Below, one piece after another: positions 23,165-52,255 of a stretch of DNA of 64,000 nt. A model generated the notes under the pieces. That model searched no databases. It saw only the letters and a list, made by a program, of their open reading frames with translations, and was not told the origin of the DNA. The DNA is from Candidatus Nanopelagicales bacterium (GTDB lineage Bacteria > Actinomycetota > Actinomycetes > S36-B12): contig JAIOXK010000003.1 in NCBI GenBank assembly GCA_021741645.1, positions 3,504-67,503 of the forward strand. The letters run 5' to 3'. Made by a program: the position numbers and the translations under genes. Every line of letters starts with the position of its first letter. Within the stretch, counting starts at the first letter, position 1.

Positions 23165-24802
23165 TCAGTCCTCGAACCACCGCGGAGACGTCGTGCGCGG
23201 CGGGTGGAATGGCTCCCGAAGCACCACGATGCGCGGCTCGCCACGGGTATTGGCCTCGTGCGACCGCGACAGTGCCGCGCCGATGCCGGCGACGTTCGCG
23301 ACCTCCTCCGTCGCAATGCCGAACGCCTTGCCGAGAGCGGTCCAGTCGGGAGTCAGCAGGTCGACCCCGCGCTCCGGGTGGCCGAACACCTGCTGGTCGA
23401 ATCGGAGCATGCCGTAGCCACCGTCGTCGACGACCAGCAGCGTGATCGGAAGTGACTCCTGCGCGTACGTCGCCAGCTCCCCGAGGGCGAACATCGGGCC
23501 GCCATCACCGCAGACGGCCAGGGTGGGGATACCCACCGATGCCGGGCCGATGGCGGCGGGGAGGGCGTAGCCGAGGGTCCCCCACCCGACCGGATACTGA
23601 AGGCGGCGGGGGCGCGGCTGGGAGCTGTAGCCGCCGTACCAGTAGGCGCCCACCGCCATGTCGCACACGATCGCACTGGACGCCGGCCACGCGCCATCGA
23701 TCTGATGCACCCAGGCGACTCCCGCGGAGCCGCGGGGGTCCTTGGCCAGACGAGCCATGATGGTCGGCCGGATTCCCGTGACGGCGACCCACGCAGCGCG
23801 CTCGCGCACCCCGGTGTCCTCGAGTGTCTCGTCCAGAGCCGCAAGAGTGAGCCCCACATCAGCGCGGATGACCGAGTTCCAGTCGATGGTCCTGGTGACC
23901 ACATCGCCGAGGGTCACCACCGCTCGTCGATCCGGGAGCGGGATCCGCCAGTTCTTGGTGTTCATCCCGTCGAAGGACGATCCGAGGACCAGAAGCAGGT
24001 CCGATTGCGCCAGCAGTTCTGACACCTCAGGCTCGTGGACGGGCGCATCGACCAGATGAGCATCGCCCGCTAGCAGGCCGCGGCCTGCGTAGCTCGTGAG
24101 CACGGGTGCACCGATGCGATGCGCGAGCGCGCGCAGGGACTCCTCTGCATCGGCTGCCACGACTCCGCCCCCGGCCCAGATGACCGGCCGTTGGCTGACG
24201 CTGATGAGCTCGGCCAGTACCGACACGTCATGCGGGTCCGGGGCGAGTGCAGGCAGGTGCGGGATGTGGGGGATGGCAGACGTCCAGGCCTCGCCAAGGA
24301 CGTCGGTGGGGATCCCGACGTAGCTGCCTGCGGCGGGTGGCCCCCACGCTTCACGGAGGGCGAGCACTGTGGAGGCGATGGCGTCCTGCCGCGTCCGTGC
24401 TCGCCTGGCCGTGGCTCCGAAGGCCTCGAACAGCGCCCCCTGATCGGCCATCTCGTGCAGGATGCCGCGGGGCCCCTCGGGTGATCGCAGCGACGCGTTC
24501 ACCTCGCTGGCGAAGGTGAGGACAGGTGAGCCGCTGACGAAGGCCTCCCCGAAGGCGGCAACCATGTTGGCCGCCCCGGGTCCACTCGTGAGCAGTGCTG
24601 CGGCGATCTCGCCGGTCGCCCTATGCAGGGCATCGCTTGCATAGCCGGCCGCCTGCTCATGCCGCACGCCGATGATTCGCGGGATGTCCGGGCCCTCGGC
24701 ATCCCAGAAGGGGAGGTTGTGGACACCGGGAATGCCGAACGCGCGCCGAACTCCGTGTCGCCCCAACAGGGTCAAGATGGCAGAGGCGACGGACGTGCTC
24801 AT
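23165..24802 (-). CDS. Thiamine-pyrophosphate-dependent enzyme (acetolactate-synthase-like family; substrate unknown)
   Basis: N-terminal PYR domain (FGIPGVHNLPFWDA, HEQAAGYASDA, TSGPGAANM). TPP-binding motif CGDGGPMF..x..VVDDGGYG. Confidence 0.8.
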   Translation of the reverse strand: MSTSVASAILTLLGRHGVRRAFGIPGVHNLPFWDAEGPDIPRIIGVRHEQAAGYASDALHRATGEIAAALLTSGPGAANMVAAFGEAFVSGSPVLTFASEVNASLRSPEGPRGILHEMADQGALFEAFGATARRARTRQDAIASTVLALREAWGPPAAGSYVGIPTDVLGEAWTSAIPHIPHLPALAPDPHDVSVLAELISVSQRPVIWAGGGVVAADAEESLRALAHRIGAPVLTSYAGRGLLAGDAHLVDAPVHEPEVSELLAQSDLLLVLGSSFDGMNTKNWRIPLPDRRAVVTLGDVVTRTIDWNSVIRADVGLTLAALDETLEDTGVRERAAWVAVTGIRPTIMARLAKDPRGSAGVAWVHQIDGAWPASSAIVCDMAVGAYWYGGYSSQPRPRRLQYPVGWGTLGYALPAAIGPASVGIPTLAVCGDGGPMFALGELATYAQESLPITLLVVDDGGYGMLRFDQQVFGHPERGVDLLTPDWTALGKAFGIATEEVANVAGIGAALSRSHEANTRGEPRIVVLREPFHPPRTTSPRWFED

Positions 24803-24804
24803 CC

Positions 24805-26352
24805 CTAGGCCCGAGAGTCGAACATGCCGAGGAGGGCGGCGATGCCCAGCACACTTCGTGGCGAGTAGGCCGCCCGCCAGAGACCTCCGTGGTTGGCCCC
24901 CTGTGCGAACAGGTCCATGGGGTTGGCCAAGGGTGTGCTCGGCTGAGCCGCTGCAGACGGATTGCGGAGGTCATGCACCAGGAGTGCAGCCATGAGCGTC
25001 GTCGTCGTCGGTGGGTCGAAGACCTCGACGCCAAAGCGCCCGGCACCGGCGTACGCGGCTGCTAGCGCCCGATTCTTGACGACGGAATTGGTGCGAGTGG
25101 CCGGGGCAAGATTCAAGGAGACAGGGACGCCGTCAGCCCGGGCGACGAGAGCACGCCAGCGCTGAAGGCGCTTGGCGAGGGCGTAGTTGGGTCCCTGCTG
25201 GGGCACCAGTGAGTCGTTGATGCCGAACACGTTGCCGTTGTCTGCGGTGTAGGTGCGCGTGTAGTTCGGCTCGAACTGCTTCAGCAGGCGCAGCGGCGTC
25301 TGGAGCAGACCGCCGATCCCTCGCGACTCCCATCTGCGCCGTGACTCCTCGACCGCCGCGAGGGGAACCATGAACACGTCCGTCGGCGTTGCGAGGTAGG
25401 CGAGGGTGACGTCCGTGCGAGTGGACGTGAGCTCGGTGACGATGGCGTCTGCGGCCATCGACAGCAGCACGTGGGCGGAGCCGTCCGCGTAGGCGTACAT
25501 GCCCATGACGAAGGGATTCTCGATCTGGCGCAGCCACGTCAGGAGTTCGGGAGTCTGGCGCAGGAGGTCTGCACCCGCATGAGTCGCGACGGCGTCGTCG
25601 TCCTCTGGATGCACGTGCCCGCCCACGACGAACGGGGGCTGGCCGTGGTCGTCCAGGGCCACCGGGATGCGGAGCGACCCTGCGGTGCTCCGAGTAGTGG
25701 AGATCAGGCGCTGCCAGATGTCCGGGCGCGGCAGGTCCACCGCATGGACGCGCGCTCCCCAGCGCAGCAGGGATCGAGTCGGGGCGAGTTCGGCCCCCGC
25801 TCCGAGCACGGCGATGTCGATATCCCGCAGGTCCATCCACTCCGGGTTGGCCACGATCAGGTCGATCGCCTCCGCGAAGCCGGGCTCGGCGATGCCCGTG
25901 CCAACCCAGGAGTCGATCTGCCGGCGCAGGTCGTCACCGAAGAGGCGACGTCCCTTGTAGGGAAGGGTGAGCCGCGTCTCGCGATCGGCGATGCCCTGCA
26001 CGGTGACGGATCCGAAGCCGGGCGCGGACCAGCGGCGCATCGCCTCCCAGAGCGGCAGCTGCTCGCCAGATCGGGAGAACACGAATCTGCGGTGAGCGGA
26101 CTCGAGGCCGTCACGCGAGACGGTGAGGGCAGCTTCACTGTTCATGGCAGAGGCGAGGGAGATGTCGCGCAGGGGGCCGATGTAGCCGCCGCGCCAGTCT
26201 GATGTGTGCTCGATCTGCGCTGCGATTCCGGGGTCCACTCTGCGGGCGCAGTCCGCGAACACCGCGCGTCCGGTCGCACTCGTGCTGCGCTGGCCGTCAC
26301 CGCCCGTGGGGAAGGCGACGCCTTCCATCTCGGTGCGGGGAACGTCAGCCAT
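24805..26352 (-). CDS. Conserved-looking 515-aa protein of unknown function with a central Rossmann-like segment
   Basis: Long ORF tightly packed between the ferredoxin-reductase and TPP-enzyme genes (2-nt and 9-nt gaps). IAVLGAGAELAPTRSLLRWGARVHAVD resembles a beta-alpha-beta dinucleotide-binding unit. I recognise no family. Confidence 0.6.
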   Translation of the reverse strand: MADVPRTEMEGVAFPTGGDGQRSTSATGRAVFADCARRVDPGIAAQIEHTSDWRGGYIGPLRDISLASAMNSEAALTVSRDGLESAHRRFVFSRSGEQLPLWEAMRRWSAPGFGSVTVQGIADRETRLTLPYKGRRLFGDDLRRQIDSWVGTGIAEPGFAEAIDLIVANPEWMDLRDIDIAVLGAGAELAPTRSLLRWGARVHAVDLPRPDIWQRLISTTRSTAGSLRIPVALDDHGQPPFVVGGHVHPEDDDAVATHAGADLLRQTPELLTWLRQIENPFVMGMYAYADGSAHVLLSMAADAIVTELTSTRTDVTLAYLATPTDVFMVPLAAVEESRRRWESRGIGGLLQTPLRLLKQFEPNYTRTYTADNGNVFGINDSLVPQQGPNYALAKRLQRWRALVARADGVPVSLNLAPATRTNSVVKNRALAAAYAGAGRFGVEVFDPPTTTTLMAALLVHDLRNPSAAAQPSTPLANPMDLFAQGANHGGLWRAAYSPRSVLGIAALLGMFDSRA

Positions 26353-26361: not shown

Positions 26362-27546
26362 TTAGCAATGTGATCGGGCCGCGATTTCTTTGCGATAGGG
26401 GATGAGGTCAGAGGTGCGATCAATGCCCACCACGCCCACGAGTCCCAAGGGATCCCGGTACTCGACGATGCAGGGACCATTCAGGTCGCCGTCGACGAGA
26501 CTGATGTCCGTGGCCAGGCCCGGCATTCCGAATGACTGGATCCTAAGGGCGTACTGATCGGACCAGAAAGAGGGCATGGCGGTGAAGGGGGCCTCGCTAG
26601 GCGATTCCCCGCGGAGGATCTGTGCCAGTGTCTGTCCTGCTCGCCGTCCAGTCTCGGTGGGGATGCTCCAATGTTCGACTCGTCGCGGCGCTGAGCCGAA
26701 GAGGGCATTGGGGTGGCGAGCGATGTCTCCCACCGCGACCACGGGCGCCAGCTCGGTTGGCACCCGCATGGCGCTATCAGTCTCGACTCCGTCGCTCAGG
26801 TCGAGTCCGTTGCCCTCGAGCCACTCAACATTGGGCACGCTACCCACGGCTTCGATGAGCACATCGGCCAGAAGCTCCGTCCCGTCATCCAAGGTCACAC
26901 TTCGAACTTGGTCACCGCCATTGGTTGCTTCAATGGTGTGCCCGAGTCGAAAGTGCACCCCCTGAGCCTCATGGCGACGCCGCAACGCTGAACTCAACTC
27001 GTCACCAAGCGGCCGGACCATCGGCTCATGATCAGCGGCGATGACGGTCACGTGCGCGCCAAGTGCGCGTGCCGTGGCTGCAACCTCACACCCGAGGAAG
27101 CCGGATCCGAGAATGACCAGATTCAGTTCACGTCGAAGCCTTGCTCGGACTGCTGCAGCATCGGCAGCGGTGCGCAGCACGAATCGTCCTTGGGTCGGGC
27201 CGGGAAACGGTAGCCGTCGTGGTCTGATGCCTGTTGCGATGACGAGCGCGTCGAAGGGCACGGCCTCACCGGTATCGAGGGTGAGAAGGCGGTCGGTCAG
27301 ATCAGTTTTCGTGATCGTGGAGTTGACCATCCAGTCGACATCGTCGACGGAGGACTTTCGTGGAAACTCCAGAGCCTCAACGTCGACGCCGTTGAGCAGG
27401 GCCCCCTTCGAAAGGGGAGGTCGGTTGTACGGCATGGAGTCCTCGTTGCCGATGACCGTGAGGGGACCCGCGAAACCGCTCGCACGCAATGACTCTGCGG
27501 TCCGAAGCGCTCCGAGTCCGCCGCCTGCTACGACCACACCATTCAT
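26362..27546 (-). CDS. NAD(P)H-dependent ferredoxin reductase (FAD, pyridine-nucleotide disulfide oxidoreductase fold)
   Basis: VVVAGGGLGALRTAESLR..YNRPPLSK and a second GSGFLGCEVA motif. Start set to ATG 27546 (MNGVVVAGGG). The track ORF extends to 27585. Confidence 0.8.
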   Translation of the reverse strand: MNGVVVAGGGLGALRTAESLRASGFAGPLTVIGNEDSMPYNRPPLSKGALLNGVDVEALEFPRKSSVDDVDWMVNSTITKTDLTDRLLTLDTGEAVPFDALVIATGIRPRRLPFPGPTQGRFVLRTAADAAAVRARLRRELNLVILGSGFLGCEVAATARALGAHVTVIAADHEPMVRPLGDELSSALRRRHEAQGVHFRLGHTIEATNGGDQVRSVTLDDGTELLADVLIEAVGSVPNVEWLEGNGLDLSDGVETDSAMRVPTELAPVVAVGDIARHPNALFGSAPRRVEHWSIPTETGRRAGQTLAQILRGESPSEAPFTAMPSFWSDQYALRIQSFGMPGLATDISLVDGDLNGPCIVEYRDPLGLVGVVGIDRTSDLIPYRKEIAARSHC

Positions 27547-27554
27547 TTTCAGAC

Positions 27555-27743
27555 CTAGGAAACGGTGATCGCCTGCATGGGACACATGTCGGCAGCCCGT
27601 TCCGCGTCGTCCCGCCGTTCGTCTCCGACGCCGCTGGTCGGCACGCTGACGCCGTCGTCATCCAGTTCAAACAGGTCCTCAGACTCGAGAACACACTGGC
27701 CATAGCCCTCGCACTTCGCACGATCCACCACGATGGTGAGCAT
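27555..27743 (-). CDS. Small [3Fe-4S]/[4Fe-4S]-type ferredoxin (P450 redox partner type)
   Basis: 62-aa protein with MLTIVVDRAKCEGYGQCV....CPMQAI. ATG 27743 follows AGGAGG. Confidence 0.8.
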   Translation of the reverse strand: MLTIVVDRAKCEGYGQCVLESEDLFELDDDGVSVPTSGVGDERRDDAERAADMCPMQAITVS

Positions 27744-27784
27744 CACGCGGAACCTCCTCTGTGAATAGGGTAGGCACAAGACAT

Positions 27785-27800
27785 TGTTCGGACCCTAATG
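27785..27800. promoter_or_regulatory. Operator-like palindrome, copy 1 (TGTTCGGACCCTAATG; reverse complement CATTAGGGTCCGAACA)
   Basis: One of four near-identical 16-mers in island promoters. It sits 42 nt upstream of the ferredoxin ATG, in the divergent region shared with the PuuD-like gene. Confidence 0.6.
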
Positions 27801-27891
27801 GACAATGGGGCAGCGGTTTGTCTTCGCCACCAGTTCAGGCGCGTGAGGCGATCTGCTGGCGAAGGGTCAACGACCGAGAACGGAGTAGTAC

Positions 27892-28590
27892 ATGGCTGCG
27901 CGACCGCGGATTGCGATTCTTGGACGCTTCACCGAGTCCGCGAGTGCGCTGCGCTACCGGGGTGTGATCTCGGCTCGAGCGCTTCTCGACGCCGTATGGG
28001 CGGCCGGAGGTGATCCTGTGACGCTGCTTCCCGGCGACGACCCCGAGGCGCTTGACTGGAGCGCACGACTGGCCGGTTTCGGTGCGGTTCTCCTGGCCGG
28101 CGGAGGTGACATCGATCCTCGACACTATGGGGGTGACCACCAGCACCACTCCGTGTACGACGTGGATCAGGTGCAGGACACGGCTGATCTGTCCCTAGCC
28201 TCTTACTGCCTGACATGGGGCATGCCGACGCTTGCGGTATGCCGTGGGATGCACATCGTGAACGTTGTGCGCGGCGGATCTCTTATCGTGGACATGCCGA
28301 AGAATCATCGGAACGTCGTTCAGGAAATCCGACTTGGCGAAGGCTCCGCACCCTTGGGAATCGGAGATGATCGCGTCACCATAAGTTGCTACCACCATCA
28401 GGCGATCGACCGACTGGGTGCTGGAATGAAGGTCGTTTCGCGATCCGATGACGGCACTGTCGAAGCGGTCGTCATTGACGCACCGGCGTGGGCAGTGGGC
28501 GTTCAGTGGCACCCTGAGGACACGTGGTCAACGGACCCAGCGCAGGTTCGATTGCTGAGAACTCTGGTGGAACACGCTCGCGGGCGTTGA
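27892..28590 (+). CDS. Gamma-glutamyl-gamma-aminobutyrate hydrolase family protein (PuuD-like, peptidase C26, class I GATase)
   Basis: Nucleophile elbow LAVCRGMHIVNVVRGG and GVQWHPE. Confidence 0.8.
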   Translation: MAARPRIAILGRFTESASALRYRGVISARALLDAVWAAGGDPVTLLPGDDPEALDWSARLAGFGAVLLAGGGDIDPRHYGGDHQHHSVYDVDQVQDTADLSLASYCLTWGMPTLAVCRGMHIVNVVRGGSLIVDMPKNHRNVVQEIRLGEGSAPLGIGDDRVTISCYHHQAIDRLGAGMKVVSRSDDGTVEAVVIDAPAWAVGVQWHPEDTWSTDPAQVRLLRTLVEHARGR

Positions 28591-28626
28591 ACGCTCGTCG
28601 GTCGGCAGTGGATGACCGGTGAAGGA

Positions 28627-29436
28627 CTAGAGGGGTCGAGAGGAGTCTGCCAGCAGAGTGCCGCCTGCAAAGGTGGTGCCAACCTCACAGTAGTAGCCGC
28701 CGATGACCTCGTCCACGGGAAGCAGGCGTGCGGGCTCGTCCCACGGTGAGTTGAAGAGGGAGAGCTCAGCATCGCCCTTCCACGGTTGTCCGAGGTCCAC
28801 GTCAATGCCGCCCATGGTCACGATCTGCTCCATCGACATGCCTGCGCCAGGGACCAGAGATGGCATGTAGCGGTGGTGGAGCATCTTGTGCGCATTGACA
28901 AAGCCGTTCGACTCGGCCGGCTCACGCAAGGTGACTCTTGCCTGCGCGATCCGGTGGTCGTAGGCGGCAAGTGAGGCACCGAAGGTGCCGCCTTCGCCGA
29001 TCCGAGGGGCGGCGATTCCGCGGTTGTACGGGCGGGTGACATAGATGCTGCCGAGCTTCTTGGGATAACCCTGGAACCAGCCGCGACCAATCGCAAAGTC
29101 CGTGGTCACCCAGATCAGGACGCAGCGGCTGTAGGTGACCCCTTGGTACTTTGTGCGGACCACGACGAATGCCTCGAGGTATTGCGAGCGGGCCGGGTCG
29201 AGGAGTTCCTCCCCACCAGTGCTGCAGGACTGCCAGTCGGCCCAGATAAAGGCGACTGCGCCCGGGTCCTCATCGGCCAGATCCAGGTCCGGAGGCAGGA
29301 TCGCGCGAACGTTCGCGGGATCCGTCCGGTACTCGACCGTCAGGAGGGTTCCGGAGTAGTGCCAGGGCATCTCCGGGATGAGGGCGGTGCGGCCGGAATC
29401 GGTGTAGGGCGGCAGAAATCCTCGGGAGTGGGTCAT
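28627..29436 (-). CDS. Acetoacetate decarboxylase-like superfamily protein
   Basis: 269-aa ORF with PPYTDSGRTALIPEMPWHYSGTLLTVEYRTDPANVRAILPP, typical of the ADC family N-terminus. Last gene of the meta-cleavage operon. Confidence 0.65.
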   Translation of the reverse strand: MTHSRGFLPPYTDSGRTALIPEMPWHYSGTLLTVEYRTDPANVRAILPPDLDLADEDPGAVAFIWADWQSCSTGGEELLDPARSQYLEAFVVVRTKYQGVTYSRCVLIWVTTDFAIGRGWFQGYPKKLGSIYVTRPYNRGIAAPRIGEGGTFGASLAAYDHRIAQARVTLREPAESNGFVNAHKMLHHRYMPSLVPGAGMSMEQIVTMGGIDVDLGQPWKGDAELSLFNSPWDEPARLLPVDEVIGGYYCEVGTTFAGGTLLADSSRPL

Positions 29437-30332
29437 GGGCGGTTGTTCACCTGATCCTTTGCCTCGGTGACCGTGGACGGATACAGGTCCTTGGACGGTG
29501 TGCGAATCCCGCGGAACTCCCAGTCGCCACCCATGGCAGTGGAGACGACCTCTTCACTCTCGGTGGGCTGGGCACCGCAGTCATCACGGATGGGGGCTGG
29601 GCCCTGAACAATCGTGTTGGAGAGGGTTCCGATCCCTTCGACCTCGACCTCGACGACATCGCCGGGGTAGACGGTCCGCGAGAAGGCGGGTGTTCCGGAG
29701 AACAGGACATCTCCGGGAACGAGGGTGATGGTTCGCGCGATGTCGGCGACGAGGTAGTTCATGTCCCACTCCATCTCGGCCGTGGTGGAGTCCTGCTTGA
29801 CGACTCCGTTGACGCGCGTCTGGATCCCCTTGTTGCGGAAGTCCCAGTCCGTGACGAGCCCGGGACCGATGGGGGCCAGAGTGTCGGAGCCCTTCACCCG
29901 GAGCATCGATCCGGCGTCGGTGTCGCGGAAGTCGTGCAGCCCGTAGTCGTTTCCGACCGTGTAGCCAGCGATGTAGTCCCCGGCCTCGTCAGGCGAGATA
30001 TTGCGGCAGGTCCGGCCGATGACGATGACGATCTCGCCCTCGTAGTTCAGCCACTTGCAGCGCTCGGGACGGACCACGTCCCCTCTGTGCGAGTTGAGTG
30101 CGGTGATCGGCTTGTGGAAGTAGGTGGGGGCGGCGGGGAGCTTCGTCATGAACTCCTCGGTGCGGGAGGCGTAGTTCAAGTGCACCGCAATGATCTTTGT
30201 CGGCTCCACTGGGGGCAGGTGGACGGCTTCTTCGACTCCGACGGTGCGCCCGTCTGGTGCTGCGAGCTCGTCACCGTGTCGGACGACCTGAACGGGAGCT
30301 CCCTCGAGGAGGATGCGCCGGTACTCCGTCAT
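29433..30332 (-). CDS. Fumarylacetoacetate hydrolase family protein (HpaG/OPET-decarboxylase-like)
   Basis: FAH-fold motifs (KIIAVHLNYASR, YEGEIVIVIG, GDVLFSGTP). ATGA overlaps on both sides. Confidence 0.8.
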   Translation of the reverse strand: MTEYRRILLEGAPVQVVRHGDELAAPDGRTVGVEEAVHLPPVEPTKIIAVHLNYASRTEEFMTKLPAAPTYFHKPITALNSHRGDVVRPERCKWLNYEGEIVIVIGRTCRNISPDEAGDYIAGYTVGNDYGLHDFRDTDAGSMLRVKGSDTLAPIGPGLVTDWDFRNKGIQTRVNGVVKQDSTTAEMEWDMNYLVADIARTITLVPGDVLFSGTPAFSRTVYPGDVVEVEVEGIGTLSNTIVQGPAPIRDDCGAQPTESEEVVSTAMGGDWEFRGIRTPSKDLYPSTVTEAKDQVNNRP

Positions 30333-31234: not shown

Positions 31235-31236
31235 GC

Positions 31237-32700: not shown

Positions 32701-32740
32701 GGGTCTCCTCTGATGGGCCTACGGACGCCCTATCCTAGAT

Positions 32741-32756
32741 CGTTCGGACCCAAACG
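32741..32756. promoter_or_regulatory. Operator-like palindrome, copy 2 (CGTTCGGACCCAAACG)
   Basis: 41 nt upstream of the ALDH start codon (32700). Preceded by GAT, as in copies 3 and 4. Confidence 0.6.
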
Positions 32757-32786
32757 GAAAGTGCTTTGTCGGATCCGACGAAGAGG

Positions 32787-34376: not shown

Positions 34377-34379
34377 GGG

Positions 34380-44137: not shown

Positions 44138-44205
44138 GGGGAGGCCTTTCGATTGGGTGCGGACGGTTATGCCGATTTACGCTCACGATAGCCGCTCGGA
44201 CACTA

Positions 44206-44220
44206 CATTTATCAAGTATC
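44206..44220. promoter_or_regulatory. AT-rich box, copy 2 (CATTTATCAAGTATC)
   Basis: Lies in the divergent ADH / GS-like promoter. The 10-mer CATTTATCAA is identical to 48594..48603. Confidence 0.45.
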
Positions 44221-44241
44221 CGAGGTGATCTGGGAGGTTCA

Positions 44242-45588: not shown

Positions 45589-46284
45589 ATGGCGCGCATC
45601 CTGCTCATCAGCCATGAACCGGAAGCCGCCCCGGCGGTGGTCGGACAGATCCTGGAGGAGCGCGGCCATGACGTGGATCTGCACGTCGTCCTTGCCGACC
45701 CTGCCAGTCCTGACACGGTGTTCCCCTCCCCAGACGCCTACGACGCGGTCGTTGCCTTCGGCTCGTTCGCCAATGCCTACGACTCGGCGGCTCGAGTTTG
45801 GGTCGAGCCGGAGATCGACTTCATCAAAGGGCTGGTGACCGAGGACATTCCGTACCTCGGAGTCTGCTTCGGAGGCCAGCTCCTTGCTGAAAGCATGGGC
45901 GGCTCTGTGGAGCGCGCCCCGGCCTCCGAGCAGGAGATCGGGCTCGTGTCGTTCCCTCACACTGGCGAACGCCCGGTTCCTGCTGGCCCCTGGTTCACCT
46001 GGCACGAGGATCGAGTTGTCGTCCCGGATTCCATGGACGTCCTTGTCCGAAACTCGAATGCACCTCAGCTGTTCCGTCAGGGGCGCGCGGTGGGGACCCA
46101 GTTTCATCCAGAGGTGAACGTCGAACTTGTGCAGTCATGGCTCAGGATCGGAGGGGATCACGTGCCGTCGCACACCACGGGCGATGCCCTCATCGCTGAT
46201 CTGCAGGCCCATGAAGGGGACCTCCGTCGCAATTGCGCGGCTCTGGTTGACTGGTTCCTCCATGACATCGCGGACCTCGCATGA
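45589..46284 (+). CDS. Class I glutamine amidotransferase-like protein, copy B
   Basis: IPYLGVCFGGQLLAESMGG and QFHPE. It starts at the nucleotide immediately after the GS-like stop. Confidence 0.8.
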   Translation: MARILLISHEPEAAPAVVGQILEERGHDVDLHVVLADPASPDTVFPSPDAYDAVVAFGSFANAYDSAARVWVEPEIDFIKGLVTEDIPYLGVCFGGQLLAESMGGSVERAPASEQEIGLVSFPHTGERPVPAGPWFTWHEDRVVVPDSMDVLVRNSNAPQLFRQGRAVGTQFHPEVNVELVQSWLRIGGDHVPSHTTGDALIADLQAHEGDLRRNCAALVDWFLHDIADLA

Positions 46285-47432
46285 CTGCTCCTCTTGATGG
46301 CGTGATCGTCGTCGCCTTGGAGCAGGCGATCTCCGCCCCCTTCGCCACTCGGCAGCTCGCCGATCTCGGGGCGACGGTGATCAAGATCGAGCGGCCGGAG
46401 GGCGACTTCGCCCGGCACTACGACTCCGTTGTCCAAGGCGAGTCGGCCTTCTTCGTCTGGGCCAACCGGGGCAAGCAGTCGATCGCCCTGGACGTGAAGG
46501 AGCCTGAGGGCGCCGCTACTCTGATGAGCCTGATTGCCGGATGCGATGTCTTCCTGCACAACCTGTCACCTCGCGCAGCAACGTCACTGGGAATCGATGC
46601 CACTACGCTCCACGAGCGCTATCCGCATCTCATCGCTGCGGAGATCTCGGGCTACGGGCTCGACGGTCCCCGCACCGATGACAAGGCTTACGACCTCGCG
46701 ATTCAGGCGGAGGCAGGCGTCTTCTCGGTGACGGGCACCGGCGAGATGAGCAAGGTGGGCTTCTCCGTCGCCGACATCTGCTCCGGTATGTATGCGATGT
46801 CCGGCATCCTTGCCGCTCTCGTGCGCCGGGAGCGGACGGGAGAAGGTGCTGCCATCCACGTCTCCATGCTGGACAGCCTCGTGGAGTGGATGTCGGCTCC
46901 GCTCTACGGCGCGGTGTACGGGGGTGGACAGGGTCCGCGAGCAGGGCGTAGGCACCATGCCATCGCGCCCTACGGGACCTTCGAGCTGGCAGACGGGTCC
47001 GTGGTGCTCATCGCTGTGCAGAGTGACGGTGAATGGCGCAGCATGGCCGAGCACCTCATGGGCGACCCCGACCTCGGCGTGGACGAGCGCTTCGACACGA
47101 ATGCGCATCGGATCGCAGCGGTTGACGACCTGGAGGACGCGATCCGGACTCGCCTGGCCGCACTGAAGGCATCCGAGGCCCTGGCTCTTCTGGAGGAGGG
47201 CCGTATCGCCCACGCACGTGTGAATGACCTCGCGGGTGTTTGGCAGCACGAGCAGTTGCGGGCGCGTGGTCGTTTCGGTCCCGTGTCGACGCCCAGCGGT
47301 GATGTCGAACTGCTCGCGTCGCCCTTCGACATCTCAGGGCTGCCGGCTGCGCAGCAGCGCGTGCCGGCACTGGACGAGCATCAGGCCGAGGTGATCGAGG
47401 AGATCACTCGGCGTGGCCGCGAGCGTCAATAG
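46281..47432 (+). CDS. CaiB/BaiF family (class III) CoA-transferase
   Basis: LDGVIVVALEQAISAPFATRQLADLGATVIKIERPEGD is the family N-terminal signature. Confidence 0.85.
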   Translation: MTAPLDGVIVVALEQAISAPFATRQLADLGATVIKIERPEGDFARHYDSVVQGESAFFVWANRGKQSIALDVKEPEGAATLMSLIAGCDVFLHNLSPRAATSLGIDATTLHERYPHLIAAEISGYGLDGPRTDDKAYDLAIQAEAGVFSVTGTGEMSKVGFSVADICSGMYAMSGILAALVRRERTGEGAAIHVSMLDSLVEWMSAPLYGAVYGGGQGPRAGRRHHAIAPYGTFELADGSVVLIAVQSDGEWRSMAEHLMGDPDLGVDERFDTNAHRIAAVDDLEDAIRTRLAALKASEALALLEEGRIAHARVNDLAGVWQHEQLRARGRFGPVSTPSGDVELLASPFDISGLPAAQQRVPALDEHQAEVIEEITRRGRERQ

Positions 47433-48580
47433 GACTTGGGCAGGCCCAGGACATGCTGACCGAGATACGCGAGCACGAGATTGTTGTTGATGGGAGCCAC
47501 TTGGTACAGGCGCGTCTCGCGGAACTTGCGCTCGATGTCGTACTCGACCGCGAAGCCGAAGCCACCGTGCGCGTCGAGCGCCGCATTGGCTGCAGCCCAC
47601 GAGGCCTCGGACGCGAGGTACTTGGCCATGTTCGCCTCCGTGGCGCAGGCCTCGCCCGCATCGAACTTCGCGGCGGCCTCGAAGCGCACGAGGTTCGCGG
47701 CGCTCAACTGGGCGTACGCGCGGGCCAGCGGAAACTGCACTCCCTGGTTGGCGCCGATCGCCCTTCCGAACACCTCACGCCCGTTGGCGTAGGCGACAGC
47801 GCGATCCAGGACGAACCTGCCATCGCCGATGCACTCTGCGGCGATCAGGATTCGTTCGGCGTTCATCCCGTCGAGGATGTAGCGGAAGCCGTTGCCCTCC
47901 TCACCGATGAGGGCGTCGGCGGGAATGAGGACGTCGTCGAAGAAGACCTCGGTCGAGTTGTGGTTGATCATCGTCGGAATCGGCTTGATCGTCAGGCCGT
48001 GCAAGTCCCGCATGTCGAAGATGAAGACGGACAAGCCACCGGTCTTCTTCTCGACCTCGTCGTAGGGGGTTGTGCGGGCGAGAAGGATCATCAGATCGGA
48101 GTAGAGGGCGCGCGATGTCCAGATCTTCTGGCCGTTGATGCGCCAGCCCTCGGGCACTCGCTCCGCCTTGGTGCGGATGCGAGTCGTCTCGGATCCCGCC
48201 TCGGGTTCGGTGACGCCGAAGGCCTGGAGCCGCAGACTCCCGTCGGCGATGCCGGGGAGATAGCGCTGCTTCTGCTCCTCGCTGCCGTGCCGCAGGAGGG
48301 TCCCCATGATGTACATCTGGGCGTGACAGGCACTCGGGTTGCCACCGGAGGCGGAGATTTCCTCGAGGATGATCGACGCCTCCGTGATGGTGGCACCGCC
48401 GCCGCCGTATTCCTCCGGGACAAGGGCACCCAGGAAGCCCGCGTCGGTCAGGGCTCTCACGAACTCCTCGGGATAGCGATCCGGCTCAAGGGCGCGCCAG
48501 TAGGGGCCGTCGAACCGCTCGACCACCTCGCGTACGCCGCTGCGAAGATCGTCATAGTCGTTGCTCTGAAGAAGATCCAC
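47426..48580 (-). CDS. Acyl-CoA dehydrogenase
   Basis: 384-aa ACAD fold (TEPEAGSETT, catalytic-region GGFGFAVEYDIERKFRE). GTG start. Confidence 0.8.
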   Translation of the reverse strand: MDLLQSNDYDDLRSGVREVVERFDGPYWRALEPDRYPEEFVRALTDAGFLGALVPEEYGGGGATITEASIILEEISASGGNPSACHAQMYIMGTLLRHGSEEQKQRYLPGIADGSLRLQAFGVTEPEAGSETTRIRTKAERVPEGWRINGQKIWTSRALYSDLMILLARTTPYDEVEKKTGGLSVFIFDMRDLHGLTIKPIPTMINHNSTEVFFDDVLIPADALIGEEGNGFRYILDGMNAERILIAAECIGDGRFVLDRAVAYANGREVFGRAIGANQGVQFPLARAYAQLSAANLVRFEAAAKFDAGEACATEANMAKYLASEASWAAANAALDAHGGFGFAVEYDIERKFRETRLYQVAPINNNLVLAYLGQHVLGLPKSY

Positions 48581-48593
48581 AGGATGTTTGTAT

Positions 48594-48609
48594 CATTTAT
48601 CAAATCAAT
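48594..48609. promoter_or_regulatory. AT-rich box, copy 3 (CATTTATCAAATCAAT)
   Basis: Lies in the 44-bp divergent ACAD / ALDH region, inside TGTTTGTATCATTTATCAAATCAATGTG, the most AT-rich stretch nearby. Confidence 0.45.
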
Positions 48610-48624
48610 GTGCAGGAGAGATGC

Positions 48625-50109
48625 ATGACGAACCCGCCTCCGGACTGGCACGTACTGGCTGCCACTGTCGAGTACCCGACCGATCTGCTCATCGATGGAG
48701 GCTGGGTGCCGGGCGAGCATCGATCAGATGTCGTCAGCCCGATTGACGGTCGGGTGATCACCGATGTCGCGTATGCCGATGCTGCGTCCGTCGACCGGGC
48801 TGTCGCCTCGGCACGCCGAGCCTTCGAGGACCGTCGATGGTCGGGCATGGCGCCGGCCGATCGCAAGGATGTCCTCATCCGCTGGTCGCATCTGGTGAAC
48901 GAGCACGCTGAGCAACTCGCAGTCCTCACATCTCTGGAGATGGGGAAACCAGCCCGAGAGGCCCAGGCGATCGATGTGCGTGCCTGCCATCGCACACTGC
49001 GCTGGTACGGCGAAGCCATCGACAAGGTGCTGGACGAGATGCCCAGCGTCCCGGATTCCTCCTGGGCCTTGATCGAACGCGAGCCGGCCGGGGTGGTCGG
49101 CGCCATCACTCCGTGGAACTTCCCCCTGACGCTAGAGACCTGGAAGGTCGCCCCGGCGCTCGCGGTCGGCTGCTCGGTGGTGCTCAAGCCCGCAGAGCTA
49201 TCTCCGCTGACTGCGCTCTACGTTGCGCGACTCGGGCTCGAGGCCGGGCTCCCGGACGGCGTCCTCAATGTCGTCAACGGCAGTGGAGCGGTGGCGGGAG
49301 CGGCTCTGGCCGGGCACATGGATGTGGATGTGATCACCTTCACCGGGTCGACGGCGACCGGGCGAGCCATCATGGCCGCTGCTGCGCAGTCGAACATGAA
49401 GCGCCCCTATCTTGAGCTTGGCGGAAAGGGCGCGAACATCGTCTTCCCTGATGCCGATCTGGACAAAGCGGCAGCCGCCACGGCCTGGGCCGTGACCTAC
49501 AACGCCGGGCAGATGTGCACGGCTGGGTCGCGGCTCATCGTGCACGAGTCGATCAAGGACGAGGTCGTTGGCAAGGTTCTGGAGGCGATGGCGGCCTTGC
49601 AGCCGAACGACCCACTTCGCCATGACGCCCCCCTCGGTGCGATTGCCAGTGCACGCCAGCTCGAGACGATCCACAGCATCGTGACGGAGGGCCTGGCCGA
49701 GGGCGGACACCTCCTCATGGGCGGCGAGCCCGTACTCACCGAGTCAGGCGGCTCCTACTACCCGCCCACCGTTGTGGAGGGTCTCAATCCGCATTCGTTG
49801 CTGGCCCAGAAGGAGGTGTTCGGTCCAGTCCTGTCCGTGCTCACCTTCGCAACGGATGACGAGGCCATCGCCATCGGCAACGCGACTCCCTACGGCCTTG
49901 CCTCCGCGATATGGACGAACGACCTCAACCGGGCTCGTCGGGCATCCAAGGGATTGCGCATGGGGACGGTATGGGTCAACTGCTTCGAGGAGGGGGATCT
50001 CACGGTGCCTTTCGGCGGCGTCAAGCAGTCCGGCTTCGGAAGCGACAAGTCACTCCACGCCCTCGAGAAGTTCACCAATCTCAAGACGACCTGGATCGAA
50101 CTGTCATGA
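48625..50109 (+). CDS. Aldehyde dehydrogenase
   Basis: ALDH motifs (LELGGKGANIVF, CTAGSRL, EVFGPVL). ATG 48625 follows AGGAGA. The track start is 48610. Confidence 0.85.
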   Translation: MTNPPPDWHVLAATVEYPTDLLIDGGWVPGEHRSDVVSPIDGRVITDVAYADAASVDRAVASARRAFEDRRWSGMAPADRKDVLIRWSHLVNEHAEQLAVLTSLEMGKPAREAQAIDVRACHRTLRWYGEAIDKVLDEMPSVPDSSWALIEREPAGVVGAITPWNFPLTLETWKVAPALAVGCSVVLKPAELSPLTALYVARLGLEAGLPDGVLNVVNGSGAVAGAALAGHMDVDVITFTGSTATGRAIMAAAAQSNMKRPYLELGGKGANIVFPDADLDKAAAATAWAVTYNAGQMCTAGSRLIVHESIKDEVVGKVLEAMAALQPNDPLRHDAPLGAIASARQLETIHSIVTEGLAEGGHLLMGGEPVLTESGGSYYPPTVVEGLNPHSLLAQKEVFGPVLSVLTFATDDEAIAIGNATPYGLASAIWTNDLNRARRASKGLRMGTVWVNCFEEGDLTVPFGGVKQSGFGSDKSLHALEKFTNLKTTWIELS

Positions 50110-50783
50110 GCAGCATCGGACGCGAAACACGCCCGAAGCGGCGAGCGAACCTCGCCGAGGAGGTAGCGACCCACCTGCGGAAGGAGATCCTGTCAGGACG
50201 CCTGCGACCGGGGGTCCGGATCGATCAGGACGGTGTTGCGGACGAGCTCGGAGTCAGCCGCCTGCCAGTCCGCGAGGCGCTCATCTCTCTTGACAGAGAA
50301 GGGCTTGTCCAGACGATCCCGCGCAAGGGCACCTATGTCTCCCGTGTCGATCGCACCGACATCATGGATCACTACCTCATCTTCGGACAGGTTGCCGGAC
50401 TCGCTGCCGCGCGGGCCGTGTCACGACTCGATGACGACGAACTTGCCAATCTGGTCGACCTTCACGACCGGATGCTCGCGGCAGCGAGCCTGAGCGAGCA
50501 GCAGCAGTTGAACCACGAATTCCACCGGAGCATCAACTATGCGGCAGGCAGTCAGCGCATGACGAGCATGCTGCAATTGCTCTCGCGATCCCTGCCCATG
50601 CCCTATCAGGACTTCCCGGCAGAGTGGCTGGACGAGGCCAACCGCCAGCACCGGGAGATCGTCGAGGCTTTCAAGGACCGCGACACCCTGGCCGCTCAAC
50701 GAGCCATGGAACAGCACATCAACGCAAGTGCACGACACGCCATCGAGGTGCTGGAGCGCCTCGACTTCTTTGAGGATGAGTGA
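50106..50783 (+). CDS. GntR family transcriptional regulator (FadR/FCD subfamily)
   Basis: wHTH VADELGVSRLPVREALISLDREGLV plus a helical C-terminal FCD-like domain. ATGA overlap with the upstream ALDH. The track ORF (49911) includes an out-of-gene extension. Confidence 0.85.
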   Translation: MSSIGRETRPKRRANLAEEVATHLRKEILSGRLRPGVRIDQDGVADELGVSRLPVREALISLDREGLVQTIPRKGTYVSRVDRTDIMDHYLIFGQVAGLAAARAVSRLDDDELANLVDLHDRMLAAASLSEQQQLNHEFHRSINYAAGSQRMTSMLQLLSRSLPMPYQDFPAEWLDEANRQHREIVEAFKDRDTLAAQRAMEQHINASARHAIEVLERLDFFEDE

Positions 50784-52255
50784 TGGACCAACACCTGCAC
50801 TGGATCGATGGCGCTCGCACTGCTCCCCTCACGGGAGAGTTCTTGCCGACCTTGGATCCCATGACTGGTGAGCCTTGGGCTCTGATCGCGCGAGGGTCCG
50901 CAGCCGACATAGAGGTCGCTGCTGAGTCGGCGCACCGGGCCTTCGCTTCATGGCGTGCCGTCGGGCCCACTCGTCGTGCTGAAATCATCTGGCGGTTGGG
51001 GGACCTGATCGCTGAGCACGCCGATGAGCTTGCAGCGCTGGAGGCGCGCGACGCGGGAAAGGTGGTGCGTGAAGTTAAGGGCCAGATGCTGTCAATGCGT
51101 GCTTGGTATCACTACTACGCCTCATTGGCGTATCAGACTGAAGGTCGAAGCATTCCCCAGGACAGAGCGAGTCTGACCGTGTTCACGCAGCGGATTCCCT
51201 TTGGCGTGGTTGGTGTCATCCCGGCCTTCAACTCCCCGATGCTGCTGGGCGGCATGGGACTGGCACCGGCTCTTGCCGCTGGCAACACGGTGGTCGTCAA
51301 GCCCCCAGAGGTGAACTCGCTGTCACTGCTGCGCCTGGGTGAGCTCGCACAGCAGGCAGGACTCCCAGACGGGTGCCTGAACGTGGTCTCGGGCTACGGT
51401 CATGAGGCGGGCGATGCGTTGGTGGCACACCCGTCTGTCCGAAAGATCTGGTTCACCGGTGGCCCGGACAGTGCACGTTTCGTCGCGGCTCGCGCTGCTG
51501 AGAACCTGAAGCCACTGGTGCTGGAGTTGGGTGGCAAAAGCGCGAACATCTTCTTCGACGACGTACGGGTCGACGATGTGGTCAACGGCGTGATCGCTGG
51601 CATCTTTGCCGCGGCAGGCCAGACATGCGTGGCGGGATCGCGACTTCTGGTTCAGGAGGGTGTTGCGGATGAACTGGTGGCGCGCATTGCTGAGCGCGCT
51701 GGGAGTATCCGGCTCGGGGATCCGGTCGCCGAGGAAACCGATATGGGCCCCATCTCTCAGGAGAAGATCCTCGATGGTGTTCAGAGCCGGGTGCTGGAGG
51801 CAATAGCCGAGGGCGCAAATCTTGTCTGTGGCGGTGACGACGCGGATCGTCCTGACCATGGCTGGTTCTACGCCCCTACCGTTCTCGACAATGTCACGAA
51901 CGACATGTCCGTCGCCCGCAATGAGCTCTTTGGCCCTGTGCTCTCTGTTATTCGGTTCTCGACGGAGGAGGAGGCTGTAGCCATCGCCAACGACTCGCCG
52001 TTTGCACTTGCGGCGGGGGTCTGGACTCGCGACCTCGGTCGGGCGCACAGAATGGCAGGGCGATTGGACACGGGGACGGTTTGGGTGAACATGTACCGAG
52101 CTCTTCAGTTTGCTACTCCATTCGGAGGCAACAAGCTCTCCGGATACGGGCGCGAGAACGGCATGGATGGGTTCGCTGAATTCACTCAGCCCAAGGGTGT
52201 GTGGGTGGAGTCAAGCGACGACCCTGTCGGAGACCCTTTCGTGCTTCGGGCCTGA
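50780..52255 (+). CDS. Aldehyde dehydrogenase
   Basis: ALDH motifs (LELGGKSANIFF, CVAGSRLL, ELFGPVL). GTGA-type overlap with the GntR gene. Confidence 0.85.
   Translation: MMDQHLHWIDGARTAPLTGEFLPTLDPMTGEPWALIARGSAADIEVAAESAHRAFASWRAVGPTRRAEIIWRLGDLIAEHADELAALEARDAGKVVREVKGQMLSMRAWYHYYASLAYQTEGRSIPQDRASLTVFTQRIPFGVVGVIPAFNSPMLLGGMGLAPALAAGNTVVVKPPEVNSLSLLRLGELAQQAGLPDGCLNVVSGYGHEAGDALVAHPSVRKIWFTGGPDSARFVAARAAENLKPLVLELGGKSANIFFDDVRVDDVVNGVIAGIFAAAGQTCVAGSRLLVQEGVADELVARIAERAGSIRLGDPVAEETDMGPISQEKILDGVQSRVLEAIAEGANLVCGGDDADRPDHGWFYAPTVLDNVTNDMSVARNELFGPVLSVIRFSTEEEAVAIANDSPFALAAGVWTRDLGRAHRMAGRLDTGTVWVNMYRALQFATPFGGNKLSGYGRENGMDGFAEFTQPKGVWVESSDDPVGDPFVLRA

Follow-up and report, generated by a model that had tools for sequence, protein, structure and literature searches.

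A composite catabolic block in a Candidatus Nanopelagicales genome, with two separately regulated modules predicted to begin with gamma-glutamylation and a candidate arylalkylamine route

What does a freshwater actinobacterium degrade with two glutamine-synthetase-like ligases, three cytochromes P450 and a ring-cleavage operon lying side by side? The question is raised by positions 23165–52255 of the Candidatus Nanopelagicales DNA analysed here (64,000 nucleotides in all, hereafter the window; ~65% GC and actinobacterial), which a preliminary description made from the sequence had taken for one island that would tag amines with glutamate, oxidise them with P450s, remove the tag and pass an aromatic product to extradiol cleavage. 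The interval proves to be composite, a catabolic block set in a conserved chromosomal backbone and made up of two separately regulated amine-degradation modules (module 1, 26362–41862; module 2, 41925–52255), in each of which the proteins predict ATP-dependent gamma-glutamylation of the amine as the first step. Module 1 is a widely conserved, horizontally mobile unit. That it degrades tyramine/dopamine-type arylalkylamines as gamma-glutamyl amides, with the tag kept through ring cleavage, is the reading that we develop below, and we consider the case for it evenly balanced.

Predicted organic-amine ligases in a composite block

Pfam and NCBIfam scans of 23165–52255 recovered every gene family that the preliminary description had named, each where it had been placed; that inventory fell short only in leaving the first two genes (a thiamine pyrophosphate (TPP)-dependent enzyme and a 515-residue protein) undescribed. 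The GS1 protein is identical on a public Logan contig, whose independent gene calls agree with the open reading frames (ORFs) of the window. The predicted ligases and hydrolases are:

36569–37927, + strand: GS1, predicted glutamate-amine ligase (gamma-glutamyl amide synthetase; Gln-synt_C, E 1e-87)
44242–45588, + strand: GS2, second predicted glutamate-amine ligase (Gln-synt_C, E 8e-78)
35709–36443, − strand: GATa, stand-alone class-I GATase-type hydrolase (PF00117; PDB 7d54, 2e-62)
45589–46284, + strand: GATb, class-I GATase-type hydrolase (PF00117), its start abutting the GS2 stop
27892–28590, + strand: C26, peptidase C26, a PuuD-like putative gamma-glutamyl amide hydrolase (PF07722, E 1e-38)

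Both GS-like proteins had been proposed to be organic-amine ligases rather than glutamine synthetases (GS), and HMM placement against GlnA and PuuA bears this out, since both fall below every cut-off: the GlnA equivalog TIGR00653 (cut-off 429) gave 262 bits for GS1 and 209 for GS2, the PuuA equivalog NF045547 (cut-off 650) gave 259 and 202, and the type III GS cut-off of NCBIfam was likewise missed by both. When both proteins were aligned by MAFFT with GlnA and PuuA of E. coli and IpuC of Paenarthrobacter aurescens TC1 (S. typhimurium numbering), all nine residues for metal, ATP and glutamate (E129, E131, E212, E220, H269, R321, R339, E357 and R359) proved to be kept in each, whereas the flap and ammonium-site residues are replaced. 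In GS1 these changes are Glu327 to Leu, Tyr179 to Val and Asn264 to Gly, with an Asp aligned at position 50; in GS2 they are Glu327 to Phe, Tyr179 to Cys, Asn264 to Ala and Asp50 to Ser, and like replacements are seen in PuuA (Tyr, Val) and IpuC (Trp, Thr). This pattern is what separates glutamyl-organic-amide synthetases from GS in the study of NpaA1 (PMC11335346). The cut-offs and the active-site alignment together rule out true glutamine synthetases, so that at the sequence level neither protein is the bona fide GS that would have spoken against the original proposal, and both are predicted to act on organic amines. Kinship to other ligases, judged by bit scores and identities, is distant: of the characterised amine ligases with PDB entries, GS1 matches the arylamine ligase NpaA1 best (8wwu, 193 bits), identity to E. 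coli PuuA is 31% for GS1 and 29% for GS2, and GS2 shares 34% identity with TC1 IpuC.

Each ligase adjoins a hydrolase with a whole Cys-His-Glu triad, as had been described (GATa, Cys97/His175/Glu177; GATb, Cys93/His173/Glu175); that of C26 is also complete (Cys117/His207/Glu209, within the motif His207-Pro-Glu209). C26 shares 29% identity with PuuD of E. coli and 34% with the GATase of the TC1 Ipu cluster. Calling the ligase/GATase pairs duplicated was misleading, as they are distant paralogs: GS1 and GS2 share 28.5% identity and GATa and GATb 34.6%, values which rule out a recent tandem duplication of the pair. A plasmid search with GATa for annotated TdnT or AtdA2 returned only generically named amidotransferases. 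Some Nanopelagicales-type loci of the survey described below (L019, L026–L028, L031 at 14547–15806, L033, L045, L080 and L081) carry a third GS-like paralog, 35–39% identical to GS1, on the opposite strand near LLM-ADC.

The other structural genes of module 1 are:

26362–27546, − strand: FdR, ferredoxin reductase for the P450s (Pyr_redox_2 and Reductase_C; 394 aa; syntenic in 32 loci)
27555–27743, − strand: Fdx, 62-aa 3Fe-4S-type ferredoxin (Fer4_13/15 by Pfam annotation of the identical public contig)
28627–29436, − strand: ADC, acetoacetate-decarboxylase-family protein, MppR/Sbi00515-like (PF06314, E 1.5e-57)
29433–30332, − strand: FAH-family enzyme, a decarboxylase/isomerase like the HpaG C-terminal domain (PF01557)
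30329–31249, − strand: predicted LigB-type extradiol ring-cleavage dioxygenase (PF02900, E 1.4e-22)
31237–32700, − strand: ALDH1, aldehyde dehydrogenase (ALDH), HpaE-like for a ring-fission semialdehyde (top match TIGR02299 HpaE)
33384–34376, − strand: PDR-type reductase (NAD_binding_1 and Fer2; FNR-like with C-terminal 2Fe-2S), in an operon with P450a
34380–35639, − strand: P450a, CYP124/125/153 clan (PF00067; heme-Cys motif and AGNETT)
37973–39160, − strand: P450b, predicted CYP255/GcoA-like aromatic O-demethylase (full-length GcoA match, 296 bits, E 5e-87)
39157–40077, − strand: F420-dependent LLM-class oxidoreductase (TIGR03619, 184.6 bits, exceeding the cut-off of 166.9), sharing an operon with P450b
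40291–41862, + strand: APC-family permease, presumed amine importer (AA_permease_2; syntenic in 51 loci)

These genes are arranged in the operons ALDH1-LigB-FAH-ADC, GATa-P450a-PDR-type reductase and LLM-P450b, and those of module 2 in ADH-P450c, GS2-GATb-CoA-transferase and ALDH2-GntR-ALDH3. Different motifs stand before the two sets:

27786–27800, + strand: module 1 operator, exact GTTCGGACCCNAAYG, divergent Fdx/C26 promoter region
32742–32756, + strand: module 1 operator, exact GTTCGGACCCNAAYG, 5' of the ALDH1-LigB-FAH-ADC operon
35665–35679, − strand: module 1 operator, exact GTTCGGACCCNAAYG, 5' of P450a
36514–36528, − strand: module 1 operator, exact GTTCGGACCCNAAYG, divergent GATa/GS1 promoter region
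32787–33284, − strand: MarR-family regulator (PF01047), the presumed operator binder
44206–44216, + strand: module 2 motif CATTTATCAAR, divergent alcohol dehydrogenase (ADH)/GS2 promoter region
48594–48604, + strand: module 2 motif CATTTATCAAR, divergent acyl-CoA dehydrogenase (ACAD)/ALDH2 promoter region
50106–50783, + strand: GntR/FCD regulator presumed to serve module 2 (GntR and FCD domains), its ATG overlapping the ALDH2 stop codon

The module 1 operator is a 15-bp sequence whose four exact copies are confined to module 1 promoters; with up to two mismatches there are six matches where 1.2 would be expected, a number reached by none of 100 shuffles. The copy at 32742 recurs at orthologous places in related loci, and an operator ~40–55 bp 5' of GS1 is kept in L006, L008, L009, L013, L032, L034 and L075. 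The module 2 motif matches only twice in the window (0.14 expected by chance). The divergent LLM/APC promoter (40078–40290) holds GTTTGGTCCCGTATG, three mismatches from the module 1 operator, and an inverted repeat, GGGTCCGTTCGTGGACCC, lies in the region 5' of MarR. A generic scan for promoters and terminators did no better than on shuffled sequence.

Both modules lie within the same backbone flanks in the 3.68-Mb metagenome-assembled genome (MAG) OZ257127.1, where ~13 kb separate module 1 from module 2, the latter accompanied by ADC and APC. Because the modules carry different motifs and lie apart in this related genome, the block is not one pathway as first proposed, but comprises at least two regulons; a single operon or regulon spanning the island is rejected on the same two grounds.

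The conservation of module 1 was assessed in a GS1 scan with one genome per species, which gave 80 loci, nearly all from freshwater or wastewater actinobacterial MAGs and isolates; synteny was scored by tblastn of 27 window proteins against these loci, 31 of which are full-length, with complete 10-kb flanks. An 11-gene core emerges (FdR(-Fdx), FAH, LigB, ALDH1, C26, MarR, P450a, GATa, GS1, ADC and APC), at least nine genes of which are syntenic in 29 of the 31 full-length loci, so that the clustering is not due to chance. Aurantimicrobium minutum, Alpinimonas psychrophila and a Nanopelagicaceae MAG supply some of these full-length loci, and nine of the 11 genes were also found in a Ca. Planktophila locus of 19.9 kb. 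GATa was found in 71 loci and MarR is syntenic in 59. The accessory genes are P450b with LLM (26–29 loci), the PDR-type reductase (14) and the genes of module 2 (~12). The core is kept in streamlined genomes of 1.4–1.6 Mb. It also occurs in Embleya and in two Streptomyces species, S. canus (linear plasmid) and S. lunaelactis (pSLUN1); the freshwater alphaproteobacterium Novosphingobium sp. EMRT-2 has a plasmid-borne version in which ligase and P450 are 35–36% identical and LigB, FAH and ADC 52–75% identical. A transposase and two integrases border the S. canus copy (L082, 18309–25340), as does an IS5 transposase the S. lunaelactis copy (L090, 23709–24602), which is consistent with horizontal spread. 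In the Nanopelagicaceae locus L062 (13847–16224), an Old-Yellow-Enzyme-type flavin oxidoreductase gene and a saccharopine-dehydrogenase-like gene lie 3' of APC, a pair found beside the cluster in no other locus searched.

One could suppose that these genes are neighbours only, the ligase/GATase pairs serving polyamine or ethanolamine detoxification, the LigB operon homoprotocatechuate-like acids, and the P450s something unrelated. GS1 and GS2 are indeed about equally similar to PuuA, IpuC and other ligases (29–34% identity), freshwater actinobacteria are generally known to use polyamines, and the block is clearly composite. Yet an identical operator precedes the ligase/GATase, P450, redox-partner/C26 and ring-cleavage units, and the gene set stays together, despite rearrangements, across orders of Actinomycetota, plasmids and an alphaproteobacterium. 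We therefore judge mere neighbourhood very unlikely and regard the link between ligase, P450 and ring cleavage that the preliminary description drew as genuine, given the common operator and the deep synteny.

The setting of the block is shown by three genes at its edges:

23165–24802, − strand: TPP-dependent enzyme of acetolactate-synthase/2-oxoacid-decarboxylase type (Pfam TPP_enzyme_N/M/C)
24805–26352, − strand: unk515, conserved 515-aa protein (no Pfam match)
52277–53239, − strand: EamA transporter, backbone gene at the right edge of the variable block (PF00892)

In the small-genome relative L088 (GCA_018402235.1) the backbone runs GNAT-PPK-CHAD-NUDIX-...-GlgC-GT4-EamA-unk515-ROK-FGGY, and EamA adjoins unk515 directly both there, with 16 bp between them, and in L089. 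The window shares the backbone of L088, but 26353–52276 is inserted between EamA and unk515. The block has 63.8% GC against 65.5% in its flanks (1.6 points lower), and neither tRNAs in the window nor integrase or transposase domains among its ORFs were found; with these lacking and the GC shift small, a classic mobile island is rejected for this genome.

The probable substrate of module 1 and the proposed fate of the glutamyl tag

The ring-cleavage operon had been called homoprotocatechuate (HPC)-type, and this holds in that HpaE-, HpaD- and HpaG-like proteins are its best matches; it does not hold further, since all of them lie below the Hpa cut-offs and the last gene is of the ADC family. 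ALDH1 scores 499 bits against the HpaE equivalog TIGR02299 (cut-off 638), LigB 122 bits against HpaD_Fe (cut-off 316) and FAH 198 bits against TIGR02303 (cut-off 276), which marks a distinct subfamily. LigB is 26–30% identical to annotated HpaD, its best PDB match is the HPC 2,3-dioxygenase 8iq8, and it has the motifs SHVP (His17), DSHW (His65) and GSMSH (His192), which by eye we take to be the metal and catalytic histidines of the LigB family. FAH is 74–82% identical across phyla. The operon ends with ADC rather than HpaH/HpaI, and no HpaF isomerase, HpaH hydratase or HpaI aldolase was found by Pfam and NCBIfam scans of the ORFs of the block. ADC matches 4jm3 (labelled mppR; 1.6e-46) and 6eej and 4zbo (both labelled acetoacetate decarboxylase; ~5e-44) in the PDB, the latter two presumably being Swit_4259 and Sbi00515; it has a PKK motif at Lys125/126 and scores 184 bits against the MppR equivalog (cut-off 380). 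We propose ADC as a candidate Schiff-base hydratase-aldolase of the lower pathway.

P450a, the universal P450 of the cluster, has orthologs 50–88% identical in 60 loci, and its best PDB matches are CYP125MRCA (1e-101) and CYP124; it may act as ring hydroxylase of a long gamma-glutamyl amide. P450b, present in 29 loci, aligns with GcoA over residues 3–395, keeping Phe75 and Phe395 and replacing Phe169 by Ala and Thr296 by Gln. Position 169 is the one at which engineered GcoA variants have a widened pocket, and the two replacements make a larger, para-substituted substrate likely. From its full-length homology to GcoA, a role of P450b in converting a methoxyphenol to a catechol is likely. The LLM gene, which shares its operon here, adjoins ADC in other loci. 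The substrate of module 1 would be aromatic and catechol-forming because LigB, the HpaE- and HpaG-like enzymes and the GcoA-like P450b occur together.

The identity of the amine is suggested by genes that join the cluster elsewhere. A group II pyridoxal phosphate (PLP) decarboxylase adjoins FdR or APC in 13 loci, its best PDB matches being tryptophan and DOPA decarboxylases; on pSLUN1 a decarboxylase of another lineage lies 3' of FAH, with best PDB matches 5hsi and 7cwx (labelled decarboxylase), which we take to be the tyrosine decarboxylases of L. brevis and E. faecalis. That decarboxylases of the aromatic-amino-acid type, from two lineages, have joined the cluster in three independent positions points to arylethylamines, which were among the candidate substrates first suggested and which the GcoA-like O-demethylase also favours. 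The pSLUN1 cluster has no P450 and no reductase, a variant which points to a catecholamine as shared intermediate and to entry at that level.

These observations also bear on the proposal that the substrate of module 1 is an arylamine with its nitrogen on the ring, such as an aniline, aminophenol or aminobenzoate, and that a P450 stands in for the Rieske dioxygenase to give, for example, an ortho-hydroxylated gamma-glutamyl-anilide for cleavage by LigB. The pairing of a GS-like ligase with a class-I GATase mirrors AtdA1/AtdA2 and NpaA1/NpaA2, NpaA1 is the top match of GS1 as given above, and LigB weakly matches the beta subunit of 2-aminophenol 1,6-dioxygenase. The decarboxylases, in their two lineages and three positions, nevertheless speak for a side-chain nitrogen, as do lower-pathway matches that are best to the HPC type, which serves side-chain-bearing catechols, and the association of a PuuC-like ALDH with the cluster; occurrence in taxa of pristine lakes would favour a natural, biogenic substrate. 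A ring-nitrogen substrate thus seems improbable to us.

For a tyramine/dopamine-type substrate, we envision the following route, in which the substrates, the order of steps and the retention of the tag are what we infer, whereas the families, active-site signatures, synteny, operators and composite structure are directly observed. The APC permease would import the amine, or, in some genomes, the adjoining aromatic-amino-acid-type PLP decarboxylase would make it from an amino acid. GS1 would convert it to the gamma-glutamyl amide, and P450a, served by Fdx/FdR or the PDR-type reductase, would hydroxylate the phenol ring to give the gamma-glutamyl-catecholamine, which P450b could also produce by demethylating a methoxy analogue. 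The LigB-type dioxygenase would then open the ring, and ALDH1, FAH and the ADC-family hydratase-aldolase would yield pyruvate, CO2 and gamma-glutamyl-4-aminobutanal. The PuuC-like ALDH2 followed by the PuuD-like C26 would release 4-aminobutyrate (GABA) and glutamate by way of gamma-glutamyl-GABA, GATa hydrolysing any excess of gamma-glutamyl amide. The Hpa pathway runs from HPC through CHMS, CHM, OPET, HHDD, OHED and HKHD to pyruvate and succinic semialdehyde; the same carbon bookkeeping applied to an N-acyl-dopamine leads to a 4-(acylamino)butanal, which as the gamma-glutamyl amide is the substrate of PuuC.

The alternative on the timing of tag removal is that GATa or C26 removes it after the P450 oxidation, so that the LigB operon receives an untagged catechol, catecholamine or homoprotocatechuate. 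Two hydrolases do adjoin the ligase and the P450, and in the Atd/Tdn/Npa systems the nitrogen departs before ring cleavage (PMC11335346). The lower-pathway enzymes resemble HpaD, HpaE and HpaG, whose substrate is an untagged acid, and minimal clusters are without a PuuC-like ALDH. Hydrolysis, however, would return the free amine, and no amine oxidase or transaminase to strip its nitrogen was found in the cluster by family scans of its ORFs, nor a PuuB-type gamma-glutamylputrescine oxidase between 23165 and 53239. The ring-fission product of a free catecholamine would be expected to cyclise, such cyclisation being established chemistry for DOPA extradiol products; a kept tag would, on chemical grounds, be expected to block it. 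Early removal would also leave no evident substrate for the operon in which, on both Streptomyces plasmids, a PuuC-like ALDH, an ortholog of ALDH2 (46–50.5% identical to E. coli PuuC, the Streptomyces proteins reaching the upper value), accompanies a PuuD-like C26; a PuuC-like ALDH also adjoins APC in L048, L052 and L079. The presence of this operon in the cluster and the lack of an amine oxidase suggest that the tag stays until after aldol cleavage. The order first proposed, with the tag off before the ring is opened, is on these grounds not the best fit, and we regard it as unlikely.

Could module 1 be biosynthetic instead, opening the ring of a tagged catecholamine on the way to a pigment, an alkaloid or a pyridine-type metabolite, in the manner of the DOPA-extradiol routes to betalamic acid and alkylprolines? 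LigB-type DOPA dioxygenases and F420-dependent LLM reductases are generally known from such routes, an F420 LLM is in the cluster, and the Streptomyces copies are on plasmids bearing secondary-metabolite genes. Against this, the ALDH, the FAH decarboxylase and the ADC-type aldolase make up a full lower pathway whose products are of pyruvate type, the cluster includes a permease for uptake, a repressor of the MarR family and hydrolases that recycle the tag, and it is retained in streamlined genomes; we give a biosynthetic role hardly any credence.

Degradation of tagged arylalkylamines must itself be set against several observations. The decarboxylase occurs in only 13 of the 80 loci and is absent from the window, and the best NCBIfam match of group II is diaminobutyrate decarboxylase, far below the cut-off. 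The closest solved relatives of P450a are aliphatic omega-hydroxylases (CYP124/125/153) rather than aromatic hydroxylases, the missing HpaF-type isomerase and the sub-threshold scores of all Hpa-like enzymes count the same way, and so do the minimal clusters without ALDH2. In the Planktophila locus (L066) GATa is a 79-aa remnant (8282–8479) and C26 is missing, while the Novosphingobium version has neither hydrolase nearby. MarR and GntR are paired with the operator and the module 2 motif by presumption. Module 2 probably degrades a small aliphatic amine or an amino alcohol by an Ipu/Puu-type route, its substrate being otherwise essentially unconstrained. In the literature searched we found no bacterial route by gamma-glutamyl-arylalkylamines or combining gamma-glutamylation, a P450 and extradiol cleavage, nothing relevant on a P450 in Aurantimicrobium or Planktophila, no account of this cluster and no experimentally characterised member of module 1. 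In L066 the remaining core and the PLP decarboxylase are intact.

Module 2 and the flanking genes

Besides GS2, GATb and the GntR regulator, module 2 contains:

41925–43142, − strand: P450c (PF00067; heme motif; 37% identical to P450a; in 12 loci)
43163–44137, − strand: Zn-dependent ADH (ADH_N and ADH_zinc_N)
46281–47432, + strand: family III CoA-transferase (PF02515, E 3e-103)
47426–48580, − strand: ACAD (Acyl-CoA_dh_N/M/1)
48610–50109, + strand: ALDH2, PuuC-like aldehyde dehydrogenase (46% identical to E. coli PuuC)
50780–52255, + strand: ALDH3, aldehyde dehydrogenase (PF00171; no specific NCBIfam assignment)

GS2 would make the amide, P450c, ADH and an ALDH would oxidise it, GATb would hydrolyse it, and the CoA-transferase and ACAD would process the resulting acid. 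The best NCBIfam matches of the last two, both below cut-off, are succinate-glutarate CoA-transferase and glutaryl-CoA dehydrogenase, so that together they form a glutarate-type pair; PuuC is the top model for ALDH2 (514 bits, cut-off 850). A 57% identical GS2 homolog with an adjoining GATase occurs in L092 (ERZ25039555 contig_1769), among genes for a nitrile hydratase, N-methylglutamate-synthase-like proteins (GATase_6/7, Glu_synthase), a 2-oxoacid dehydrogenase complex and a diol-dehydratase/reactivase set.

To the left of module 1, unk515 is a chromosomal backbone gene, here co-transcribed with Fdx and FdR in the operon Fdx-FdR-unk515-TPP. Its identity was sought through Pfam, a homolog search, an AF2 model (pLDDT 73) and Foldseek against the PDB, which gave weak Rossmann/SDR-like matches only. 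Homologs of near-constant length number more than 6000 in freshwater actinobacterial data, the best 120 being 68–99% identical. The TPP enzyme, the final gene of the operon, had all its NCBIfam matches below cut-off; it also lies 3' of unk515 in L087, where unk515 sits within an operon PLP-decarboxylase-unk515-TPP. Relative to L087, an LPMO gene is inserted between the TPP and GFO/MocA genes. The following lie outside the block:

717–2594: flavin amine oxidase
2713–4332: multicopper oxidase
4350–6419: GH5 cellulase with CBM2
6561–8381, − strand: 606-aa ORF with no Pfam match, beside a response-regulator gene
21749–23086: LPMO10-fn3-CBM5/12 protein

The cellulase, LPMO and oxidase genes point to a polysaccharide-degrading lifestyle.

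Significance and comparison with known systems

Gamma-glutamylation-dependent amine catabolism is known for putrescine, small alkylamines, ethanolamine and anilines. Taken as a whole, the picture in which gamma-glutamyl serves as a protecting group through the P450 step, LigB and ADC-type cleavage, in an undescribed route for tyrosine, tyramine and dopamine that is a conserved trait of abundant, streamlined freshwater Actinobacteria (Nanopelagicales/acI, Luna-type Microbacteriaceae) and is exchanged on plasmids with Streptomyces and sphingomonads, is one that we advance tentatively. If true, it would put the glutamyl protecting group to a new use in ring fission, give ADC-superfamily aldolases a physiological role, identify a nutrient niche of acI-type Actinobacteria and bring new enzymes to light: a glutamyl ligase for arylalkylamines, P450s acting on gamma-glutamyl amides and a LigB for tagged catecholamines. 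Because the 11-gene core is kept in 1.4–1.6 Mb genomes of bacteria that dominate lake plankton, the substrate would be an ecologically important source of dissolved nitrogen and carbon. Module 1 offers a precise pathway prediction, open to testing in cultured carriers (Aurantimicrobium minutum, Alpinimonas psychrophila DSM 23737, S. canus NBC_00633, S. lunaelactis MM109 and Novosphingobium sp. EMRT-2).

Among characterised systems, Ipu (isopropylamine and ethylamine; Pseudomonas sp. KIE171 and the plasmids of TC1), in which hydrolases are of GATase and C26 type, has a front end in common with module 1 and an architecture in common with module 2. The TC1 ipu cluster comprises IpuC, a P450, a ferredoxin, a reductase, two GATases, a short-chain dehydrogenase (SDR) and ALDHs, and a P450 system is described as hydroxylating gamma-glutamyl-isopropylamide (PMC6776027). 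Oxidation by P450s in place of Rieske oxygenases, proposed earlier for the island, is therefore not new. Pfam scans found no Rieske or ring-hydroxylating dioxygenase domain in any ORF of the block. All parts of an Ipu-type set are present in the window, from the ligase and a P450 with its ferredoxin and reductase to an amidohydrolase, an alcohol dehydrogenase and aldehyde dehydrogenases; at 28–34% identity to their TC1 counterparts, however, these proteins are not orthologs, and Ipu handles an aliphatic substrate without ring-cleavage genes, to which module 1 adds LigB, the HpaE-like ALDH, the HpaG-like FAH, ADC and the GcoA-like P450.

E. coli leaves the tag in place during the oxidation steps of its Puu pathway, as we propose for module 1, and the proposed sequence from gamma-glutamyl-4-aminobutanal through gamma-glutamyl-GABA to GABA coincides with Puu intermediates; ALDH2 and C26, at 46% and 29% identity to PuuC and PuuD, both lie below the equivalog cut-offs. 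The block lacks a PuuB oxidase and PuuE, and the aminoaldehyde, which in Puu comes from putrescine oxidation, would in module 1 come from aldol cleavage of a ring-fission product. In Atd/Tdn/Npa (AtdA1–A5, TdnQTA1A2B, NpaA1–A5), as predicted for module 1, the degradation of aromatic amines sets out from a GS-like ligase paired with a class-I GATase-like hydrolase, and the ligases have lost the catalytic Glu flap of true GS, as have GS1 and GS2 (PMC11335346). Those systems act on a ring nitrogen and proceed to meta- or ortho-cleavage of catechol, whereas module 1 has P450s, an LigB/HPC-like cleavage and a nitrogen that is probably on the side chain.

With Hpa/Hpc, module 1 shares the order ALDH, LigB-type dioxygenase and FAH decarboxylase/isomerase and a MarR-type regulator, HpaE, HpaD_Fe and HpaG-C being the best NCBIfam matches; an ADC-family enzyme takes the place of hydratase and aldolase. 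That enzyme has the Lys-Lys motif of the ADC superfamily (Sbi00515, Swit_4259, MppR), for which we know of no aldolase-dehydratase with a shown physiological role in meta-cleavage. P450b matches the GcoAB/AgcA (CYP255) type end to end, with two of the three pocket phenylalanines of GcoA kept and a match of 269 bits to 8u09, which we take to be AgcA; no GcoB-type reductase was identified as partner of P450b, whose neighbour is the F420 LLM. The actinobacterial amine ligases GlnA2–4, compared by description, have a logic that module 2 fits, and no linkage to P450s or ring cleavage; for GlnA4, GlnA2 and GlnA3 of Streptomyces, which make gamma-glutamyl-ethanolamide and gamma-glutamyl-polyamines, dehydrogenase, ALDH and hydrolase steps have been proposed after gamma-glutamylation (PMC6529630). 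While it fails the equivalog tests of each of these systems, module 1 resembles Ipu, Puu and Atd/Npa at both its ends and Hpa in mid-pathway.

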